From a virus (lineage: Duplodnaviria > Heunggongvirae > Uroviricota > Caudoviricetes), in the IMG/VR virus record IMGVR_UViG_2718218136_000007, positions 1-49,093 of that record: 49,093 bases of DNA. One strand, given 5' to 3'. A program made the translations under genes and the position numbers. Below, one piece after another: positions 26,961 through 27,804 of this stretch. Within the stretch, counting starts at the first letter, position 1, and every line of letters starts with the position of its first letter. The notes beneath the pieces were generated by a model. That model saw only the letters and a list, made by a program, of their open reading frames with translations. It was not told the origin of the DNA and ran no database searches.

Positions 26961-27103
26961 GAGCTCAGGTCATCAGAAGGACCCACATTAAAGGCAGAAT
27001 ATTCACTCTGATATTACGCATTGTTTTGCTTTTGTAGATTCGCAATTTACGGTAAAAATACTTTTGCTATTTCTTCGTACCATAAATGCACAGGAGTATC
27101 TTC

Positions 27104-27424
27104 ATGTCCATAAAGGTATTCAGAAGTGACCTTCAGACTGAGAGTGAATCAGACTATCGTAATTGGCTTGGCGATAATCCAGACGGATATGTTGTCAATG
27201 CATTGAAGCGAACCAGAGGTAAAGGTAATAAATCTGACGAATGCTTTACCAGAATCCATAGAGCATCTTGCAAAACGATTAATCCCTTGAAACGCAAGAT
27301 CGATAAAACAGGATTCACAACTGGAGATTATCAAAAAATATGCTCAACCAACTTCCTCAATGTTGAAAATGAAGCAAAGAAAATGACAGGTCTGACAAGC
27401 ATCATCAAATGTCGATGCATCTAA
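27104..27424 (+). CDS. Hypothetical protein (106 aa), AT-rich moron between cos and the lysis genes
   Basis: ATG at 27104 preceded by AGGAG (27093-27097); markedly AT-rich; 5 Cys; no family recognised by eye. Confidence 0.5.
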   Translation: MSIKVFRSDLQTESESDYRNWLGDNPDGYVVNALKRTRGKGNKSDECFTRIHRASCKTINPLKRKIDKTGFTTGDYQKICSTNFLNVENEAKKMTGLTSIIKCRCI

Positions 27425-27641
27425 AGCGTCATGTAATTAACATGTTCACAACACTCTCCGGGTGACCGCTAATGCTGTTGTCAGCCAAAAACTCTACGTT
27501 TCGATTATGCCAATTTTGCACCGCCCGATGCCGATAAATGCGAAAATCCGGCGACTATGTAGCGTAATCAAATCAACGAGATACCACTTTCATGAAATAA
27601 TTATCATCTGTCAGTTCAATATCAATGTTGAGAGAGAATAA

Positions 27642-27794
27642 ATGAGAGGAATGCCAAGAGGAAGTCGAGGACAGAGGGCTGTCCAATCAACTGCAAGAAG
27701 AGCAAGACGATCAAATGCCAGCCATTCTGACCAATTAGGATGCCTGGCACTAATCATCGTTGGCCTGATATTTATCTATTTCATGGCTAATTAG
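27642..27794 (+). CDS. Small predicted tail-anchored membrane peptide (50 aa), Arg-rich N-terminus
   Basis: Translates to MRGMPRGSRGQRAVQSTARRARRSNASHSDQLGCLALIIVGLIFIYFMAN; single C-terminal hydrophobic helix; below the 60-aa ORF-track cutoff; converges on Rz. Confidence 0.35.
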   Translation: MRGMPRGSRGQRAVQSTARRARRSNASHSDQLGCLALIIVGLIFIYFMAN

Positions 27795-27804
27795 CAAAGA
27801 TTGC

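Follow-up and report, generated by a model that had tools for sequence, protein, structure and literature searches.

A two-ORF accessory block between Rz and cos of a lambda-like Escherichia coli prophage, with a standalone copy of an uncharacterised His/Cys domain and a putative tail-anchored peptide

In phage lambda, Q-dependent late transcription runs from Rz across cos into Nu1, and the slot between Rz and cos is the site of bor, which likewise reads against the late genes. This report concerns a block of about 860 bp that fills the same slot in a lambda-like E. coli prophage, the 49,093-nucleotide (nt) stretch of Caudoviricetes DNA recorded as IMGVR_UViG_2718218136_000007 and called, in its whole length, the window. 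The block carries two small open reading frames (ORFs) on the + strand, ORF-A (27104..27424) and ORF-B (27642..27794), whereas the late genes that flank it all lie on the - strand. A lambdoid prophage with accessory cargo between Rz and cos is nothing out of the ordinary, and the block shares with the lambda bor region and with morons at large its slot, its anti-late orientation, a guanine-plus-cytosine (GC) content below that of its flanks, and its presence in only some related phages. It departs from Bor itself in having no likeness of sequence or architecture, no lipoprotein signal in either protein, and no identifiable promoter or terminator of its own. The explanation that we hold with moderate confidence is that of a horizontally acquired moron in which ORF-A encodes a standalone zinc- and DNA-binding protein and ORF-B a tail-anchored membrane peptide, the two being separate genes.

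ORF-B invites comparison with three further groups of proteins. With the type I toxins (Hok/Gef, Ldr, TisB, Ibs, ShoB, Fst) it shares a length of at most 50 residues, a single helix, a charged end, and residence on a mobile element, but it has no family match, its basic segment is N-terminal and its helix stands at the extreme C-terminus, and no antisense RNA signal accompanies it. The MS2 L-type lysis proteins likewise join a basic N-terminus to a hydrophobic segment; ORF-B differs in reading against the lysis cassette of a phage already provided with holin, endolysin, and spanins, and it was rejected as a member of this type for want of Leu-Ser and of a C-terminal domain past the hydrophobic stretch. 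A holin or antiholin was rejected as well, given the missing C-terminal tail, a strand opposite to that of the holin (28742-29020), and no holin match in Pfam or PHROGs. The C-tail-anchored proteins of E. coli (ElaB, YqjD, and YgaM; DjlC and Flk) resemble it in their single helix at the extreme C-terminus with one to three residues beyond and in a charged cytoplasmic N-terminal part, although ORF-B is much shorter and bears no likeness to a Pfam family. For ORF-A the comparison is with the modification-dependent (Type IV) endonucleases, exemplified by the SRA-HNH enzyme TagI, ScoMcrA, the PUA-HNH enzymes, and YenY4I (PMC6765204, PMC6212794, PMC3009677), in that relatives of ORF-A carry an ORF-A-like domain N-terminal to an HNH or PD-(D/E)xK domain.

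The limits, mobility, and composition of the block are established. An earlier note made from the letters without database searches, here the sequence-only reading, had described an AT-rich two-gene moron between cos and the lysis cassette, transcribed opposite to its neighbours in a slot equivalent to the lambda bor region, a known moron site. Every statement in it that concerns the sequence itself holds. In 300-nt windows GC is 0.377-0.42 over 27000-27899, against 0.51-0.58 at 24000-26799 and 0.48-0.53 at 27800-29300, in summary 0.38-0.42 in the block and 0.50-0.56 beside it; cos (about 26790-26960) lies on one side and Rz, lysozyme, and holin on the other; and the slot is indeed one for exchangeable cargo, since phage PhiR46_1, which has the packaging genes in common, fills it with 2.4 kb of unrelated cargo. 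The codon-usage check that the same reading had suggested also bears it out: of the eight Arg codons in each ORF, six in ORF-A and all eight in ORF-B are of the rare kinds AGA, AGG, and CGA, as compared with 20% in phage core genes, so that the Arg codon usage of the block is foreign, and the window carries no tRNA gene that could serve them. Two parts stand only in part. The opposite strands are as described, transcription being read from orientation only; and while the status as cargo stands and both ORFs look real, a functional pair is not borne out, as relatives of ORF-A occur without ORF-B.

Of 5,426 complete E. coli genomes, 53 have the whole block, with 97.5-100% identity and never one half without the other, and 4,029 have its flanks; most lambdoid prophages that share the flanks are without it. 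Seven IMG/VR contigs and four metagenome contigs also carry the block, which is absent from all 50,697 deposited phage records, 80 lambda-like records among them matching the cos part alone. It adjoins small terminases of either the Nu1 or the DUF1441 type and lysis genes that are either RrrD/EssD or GH24 with other holins, and its carriers include enterotoxigenic E. coli (ETEC) H10407 as well as water, pig, poultry, and commensal isolates. Its status as a moron is supported by where it lies, how it is distributed, and its base and codon composition; a search around the block found no flanking repeats marking an insertion. One carrier is the 43,337-bp circular record NZ_CP174001.1 (locus L027), 'plasmid pOHT76-1_1' of E. 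coli SZQ1, in which the block is accompanied by a DUF1441-type small terminase and a large terminase. This 43-kb record is most likely an excised or replicating phage genome, in which case the phage carrying the block would be active. Roughly one complete E. coli genome in a hundred has the block, and since H10407, a reference strain of ETEC, is one of these, the properties of the block are easy to test; the copy in strain DX6 is 100% identical.

ORF-A and its domain family

ORF-A, the hypothetical protein WP_000025002.1 of RefSeq, is a protein of 106 amino acids (aa) and 12 kDa with five Cys and an isoelectric point (pI) of 9.45. Its Shine-Dalgarno (SD) sequence, AGGAG at 27091-27095, forms an SD/anti-SD duplex of -6.9 kcal/mol, in the top 3-7% or so of 20-mers sampled across the window; the Cys-containing product and its good ribosome-binding site had both been recognised correctly from the letters. 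A search of 5.8 billion proteins found homologues in 17 protein clusters at 57-98% identity, those at 57-68% coming from Leclercia, Pseudescherichia, and metagenomes, and a single deposited phage, Klebsiella phage ST846-OXA48phi9.2, has a relative. In every locus examined these relatives lie in anti-late orientation in the accessory region after the lysis cassette of temperate phages, starting 47-95 nt from a divergent packaging-side gene that is either a Terminase_2-type small terminase or the HNH-plus-MazG-like pair preceding the terminase. In other genera they are monocistronic, with a strong hairpin-plus-T-run terminator after the gene and downstream neighbours that vary by locus.

Purifying selection is established for both proteins of the block. 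For ORF-A, nonsynonymous divergence (pN) of 0.18-0.24 across genera, set against synonymous divergence (pS) of 0.65-0.86, indicates strong purifying selection between genera, and H52, C56, C80, C103, and C105 are invariant among close homologues. On this sequence evidence ORF-A is a real protein. It has no match in the family libraries Pfam, PHROGs, PADLOC, and NCBIfam, and a literature search found no paper that mentions WP_000025002 or the ORF-B sequence. Codon 47 (window position 27242) specifies Cys in the present copy but Arg in at least 90% of the family and in most of the other E. coli copies. Among the relatives, loci L007 (3046-3909), L028 (2050-2913), and L029 (2042-2905) hold a 287-aa HNH-type gene followed by a MazG-like gene, the ORF-A relative being divergent and about 90 nt away; such phages are known to have HNH genes beside cos and the terminase genes (PMC3592412). 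In Pseudescherichia and metagenomic phages an Acb2/Tad1-hairpin (PF24729) gene (L010 5975-6211, L030 4469-4705) sits in the same lysis-to-packaging slot as the ORF-A relative, from which it appears that the slot collects anti-defence cargo.

The domain relationships of ORF-A are likewise established and reach far beyond phages of this kind. A profile search of 1.84 billion representative proteins yielded 242 relatives at E <= 0.001, and one of the 5.8-billion-protein set yielded 318 related clusters, all 'hypothetical' and without a Pfam domain, one of which bears the Joint Genome Institute (JGI) label '5-methylcytosine-specific restriction protein A'. Invariant across the superfamily are Y18, W21, G28, H52, K78, and C103, and nearly so F6, V30, N32, C56, T72, Y76, and C80. 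An AlphaFold2 model of ORF-A built on 46 sequences reached a predicted local distance difference test score (pLDDT) of 89 and a predicted template modelling score (pTM) of 0.82, the five models ranging from 85 to 89 in pLDDT. This confident model is without a solved relative, and in fold and sequence ORF-A shows no relation to the known sensing domains with which it was compared, namely SRA, PUA/EVE/ASCH, YTH, winged helix, DUF3427, and the sulfur-binding domain.

Like ORF-A itself, to which no nuclease domain is attached, most relatives stand alone, with a length of about 100 aa. In 28 of the 40 relatives of at least 200 aa the ORF-A-like domain is N-terminal, and among 55 multidomain relatives 24 carry a domain of HNH type (HNH in 14, HNH_2 in 8, HNH_5 in 2) and two carry NOV_C, the former DUF3883, a PD-(D/E)xK domain. 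Four relatives match the nuclease half of phosphorothioate-DNA restriction endonucleases, one multidomain relative is a Ser/Thr kinase resembling the defence kinase PD-T4-6, and the domain is also fused to a PDC-S02-like module. Further, the 394-aa protein P0148, with an ORF-A-like N-terminal domain, is encoded directly upstream of genes for a McrB-like protein (AAA_5, McrB_lid) and McrC (locus L038, 6001-9807), an arrangement suggestive of a McrBC-type system of three genes in which the specificity subunit is encoded apart; and the gene for P0131, which like P0034 is a fusion of the domain to HNH, adjoins a dCTP-deaminase-like gene. P0148 also has a precomputed match to DUF8426 (PF28530), and a Y1 transposase adjoins the genes of L038.

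Characterised modification-dependent restriction enzymes combine an N-terminal modification-sensing domain with a C-terminal HNH or PD-(D/E)xK domain (PMC6765204). This likeness of layout makes the ORF-A-like domain a candidate module for DNA recognition or sensing, of which phage ORF-A would be a nuclease-less copy. Whatever its function, ORF-A ties a compact phage gene to a His/Cys domain family of some 240-320 sequence clusters that has no Pfam entry and no solved fold. If it is true that the domain reads DNA modification, restriction and anti-restriction would gain a new reader, and the small phage ORF-A would lend itself to biochemical and structural study.

ORF-B as a probable gene

ORF-B is unannotated in every RefSeq copy examined. 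It is nonetheless open in 16 of 16 block copies, among which its 153 nt contain eight variable sites, the densest variation in the block. Seven of these are synonymous third positions, and the eighth, V40F, is the sole amino-acid change; it falls inside the hydrophobic helix, so that there are only two variants of the protein. Given that 25-29% of random changes in this sequence would be synonymous, the probability of seven or more synonymous changes in eight is 0.0004-0.001 under neutrality. Read in the other five frames, the same sites give 0-1 synonymous changes in four and six in the antisense frame that shares its phase. That antisense ORF, 27611-27757 on the - strand, is the less likely object of selection, as a TGG>TGA change closes it at codon 9 in copy L013 (strain EN-1077) and its SD duplex is poor (-2.5 kcal/mol, as against -5.5 for ORF-B); copy L022 has N48S in it. 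We therefore regard ORF-B as very probably the frame under selection, judged by these substitutions, and as probably a real gene. ORF-B would thus be a small membrane protein missed by annotation pipelines and by a catalogue of 5.8 billion proteins, yet carrying a signature of purifying selection.

The 50-aa Arg-rich peptide of the sequence-only reading is encoded at 27642-27794 exactly as it was quoted. Residues 1-31 contain eight Arg, no Lys, and one Asp, the Arg standing in RG and RR clusters (pI 12), and the hydrophobic stretch occupies the 18 residues 32-49 and is followed by a single residue. A tail-anchored inner-membrane peptide of 5.5 kDa with its polycationic head in the cytoplasm is the predicted form, the topology following the positive-inside rule. 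Its Arg codons, all of them among the rarest in E. coli, are AGA five times, AGG once, and CGA twice, four of them within the first 12 codons, and with eight rare Arg codons the level of ORF-B should stay low.

Relatives of ORF-B were sought widely. None of the libraries Pfam, NCBIfam, PHROGs, and PADLOC has a match to it, a word-indexed search of the 5.8-billion-protein collection did not turn up even ORF-B itself, and tblastn gave no relatives among phages or plasmids. When the viral collection was scanned by peptide pattern, none appeared beyond identical or 98% copies, and such scans of the genome and metagenome collections gave none beyond such copies among the matches listed. A 33-nt degenerate pattern for IIVGLIFIYFM, for which about 0.003 chance matches are estimated in the genome collection, occurs in 0 species-representative genomes and on four metagenome contigs, all of them the same E. 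coli block. Beside every divergent ORF-A, ORF-B is absent. Because those divergent genes have their own terminator and other neighbours in place of ORF-B, ORF-A and ORF-B are probably independent cargo, and from sequence the E. coli block resembles an ORF-A unit whose terminator has been lost and to which, 217 nt downstream, an unrelated small gene has been added.

What the block may do

On the explanation favoured above, the DNA at 26939-27804 would have been acquired horizontally at the right end of the prophage genome, between Rz/Rz1 and cosN, the E. coli lineage of the block being the only one in which ORF-B joined ORF-A. ORF-A would be a basic zinc-binding protein (His-Cys3/4) that uses a zinc-stabilised fold to bind, but not to cleave, DNA, possibly in modified form, and ORF-B would enter the membrane post-translationally by its C-terminal helix, leaving the Arg-rich head to the cytoplasm. 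Since both ORFs face the late operon they cannot belong to the late transcript, and given their orientation, expression is to be expected from the prophage or from incoming DNA, independent of late transcription, a timing that, like any benefit to phage or host, we infer. Late transcription that followed the lambda path would cross the block in antisense and, being convergent, would oppose both ORFs during lytic growth. A wider proposal joins these elements: the ORF-A family, which neither Pfam nor the PDB contains, would be an undescribed zinc-dependent sensing domain for DNA modification at work in HNH, PD-(D/E)xK, and McrBC-linked restriction, temperate enterobacterial phages would have a nuclease-less copy beside their packaging genes to shield their own methylated DNA from restriction, and with ORF-B a new class of prophage peptides, tail-anchored and polycationic, would have its first member. 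In this combined form we rate it as rather unlikely, though not negligible.

Several observations weigh against the favoured explanation. The role of ORF-A as a DNA reader is deduced from domain architecture only, and one fusion, P0160, also has a weak segment like DUF3427, a known sensing domain, in which case the ORF-A-like module could be an accessory and not the reader. Two standalone chromosomal relatives sit among housekeeping genes, and the idea that standalone relatives are always defence-linked was rejected on their account. Within E. coli the changes in ORF-A number six nonsynonymous against two synonymous, small numbers both, and two alleles have R53S at a position invariant among close (57-98% identical) homologues; such a pattern of substitutions is compatible with relaxed selection. 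The promoter search that the sequence-only reading had proposed found no convincing promoter, the scan yielding neither promoter nor terminator above chance for ORF-A or ORF-B. For ORF-B the coding case rests on eight sites in few haplotypes, and its preference over the antisense frame rests on one nonsense change, SD strength, and plausibility as a protein; by the sequence searches it is, moreover, a strict orphan limited to the E. coli block, with no relative elsewhere.

Among the alternatives, the domain architecture of the ORF-A relatives speaks for one in which ORF-A is an anti-restriction shield that, on the methylated DNA of the phage itself, masks the targets or poisons the oligomers of Type IV-like nucleases, with ORF-B as unrelated cargo. 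Having its own methyltransferase (29025-30077), the phage would expose its DNA to modification-dependent nucleases; the right cohesive end, with which lambda DNA enters the cell first, is about 150 nt away from ORF-A; and anti-defence genes are found among the neighbouring cargo in relatives. We nevertheless consider such a shield unlikely: the methyltransferase is not beside ORF-A in other phage loci, the ORF-A of L029 is 1.7 kb from the packaging site, and an orientation against both the early and the late programme confers no obvious advantage of timing. Distinctly unlikely, in our judgement, is a cassette for abortive infection or exclusion, or a toxin with its regulator, in which ORF-A as sensor controls ORF-B as membrane-disrupting effector. 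The two ORFs do occur together in all 53 E. coli genomes that have either, yet with a block that is everywhere 97.5-100% identical this tells nothing, and in every other genus the ORF-A relatives are without ORF-B. No terminator separates the genes here, whereas ORF-A elsewhere has one, but a spacer of 217 nt leaves them without translational coupling. Fusions of ORF-A-like domains to defence-type effectors (HNH, the PD-T4-6-like kinase, the PDC-S02-like module), the frequency of small single-helix peptides as effectors, and the PF24729 Acb2/Tad1 genes of the slot in relatives would suit such a cassette; against them stands the lack of any PADLOC match. The virulence, exclusion, or toxin-like function that the earlier note had called frequent in such cargo finds no support, neither protein having a match in Pfam, PHROGs, PADLOC, or NCBIfam.

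The remaining alternatives turn on ORF-B or on the slot. That ORF-B is not a gene at all, but a chance ORF in AT-rich DNA or the shadow of the antisense ORF 27611-27757 (-), is quite improbable. An ORF of 50 codons at 41% GC is estimated to arise by chance in about 4% of frames, the Prokaryotic Genome Annotation Pipeline (PGAP) never calls ORF-B, the 5.8-billion-protein collection does not have it, and the antisense frame too shows six synonymous sites; but seven of eight changes synonymous in phase (P <= 0.001), a clean positive-inside head with an 18-residue hydrophobic helix, and the defects of the antisense ORF (the stop at codon 9 in L013, N48S in L022, and the SD of -2.5 kcal/mol) argue for ORF-B. 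Type I systems on prophages are known (review PMC12648545), and a small hydrophobic peptide of typical size, with - strand promoter-like sites at 27625..27597 and 27880..27851, might be a type I toxin with a small RNA, antisense or divergent, for its antitoxin, the prophage being stabilised in consequence. Yet these sites are at shuffle expectation (2 versus 2.6), there is no terminator, stable RNA (z = 0.09 and 0.93), or Rfam match to go with them, the Pfam and NCBIfam libraries, which are expected to cover the type I toxin families, give no match, and the polarity of ORF-B, basic head first and helix last, is the reverse of that in Hok, Ldr, TisB, and Fst, all of which makes this a very improbable account. 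Least credible of all is a moron that serves virulence or serum resistance in the manner of lambda Bor or Lom: slot and anti-late orientation are those of bor and ETEC H10407 is among the carriers, but so are water, pig, poultry, and commensal isolates, and neither protein has an N-terminal signal peptide, a lipobox, or a Pfam match at E <= 1.

Signals, borders, and neighbouring genes

The left end of the block (26939..27103) is non-coding, spanning from cosN to ORF-A and including the AGGAG already described; a lenient scan of it gave no sigma-70 match. The sole candidate promoter element in the block is a weak extended -10 (TGaAATAAT, 27593..27601, + strand), a consensus match only, about 35 nt upstream of ORF-B. 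Promoter-like sites numbered two, as against 2.6 by shuffle expectation, with no + strand promoter at the stricter threshold, and the two on the - strand, the first of which lies just upstream of ORF-B, are at chance frequency. The 217-nt spacer between the ORFs (27425..27641) has no stable RNA fold (z = 0.09), Rfam family, or terminator-like site, and the region after ORF-B has no stable fold (z = 0.93) and no terminator. An Rfam scan at E <= 5 gave chance matches only, mostly to the cos hairpin at 26791-26847 (a microRNA and two cis-regulatory families). A 59-codon ORF with a GTG start at 27462-27641 was rejected as a gene, a 1-nt deletion at 27494 putting the L013 copy out of frame; it has no match in Pfam, PHROGs, PADLOC, or NCBIfam.

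The left limit of the block is 26939, at cosN (about 26935-26960), where matching to the copies with DUF1441-type terminases, L013 and L027, starts. Rightward, homology to L014 and L026 reaches 28248, through Rz, although lysozyme and holin there come from other families, and because the homology spans Rz even beside these, the block travels with Rz/Rz1. The cos region that forms the left border (26790..26960) contains a cosB hairpin (26791-26847), an inverted repeat of 26 nt with 85% complementarity and a 5-nt loop, situated between cos and Nu1. Phages of lambda-like type match the window at 26770-26958 with 92-97% identity, a match that phage DE3 labels 'cos site'. Beyond cos follow, on the - strand, the small terminase Nu1/nohD (26221-26766) and the terminase large subunit (24321-26246).

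On the other side the Rz-type i-spanin gene (27805..28260, -) is convergent with ORF-B, their stop codons 10 nt apart. Inside it, out of frame, an Rz1-type o-spanin ORF (27849..28055, -) is recognisable in translation by its lipobox LLGVSGC, and has been left unannotated in RefSeq copies of the prophage. The lysozyme RrrD (28245-28742, -) and the holin EssD (28742-29020, -) complete this flank, and the 350-aa DNA methyltransferase (29025-30077, -) lies between the antiterminator region and the holin.

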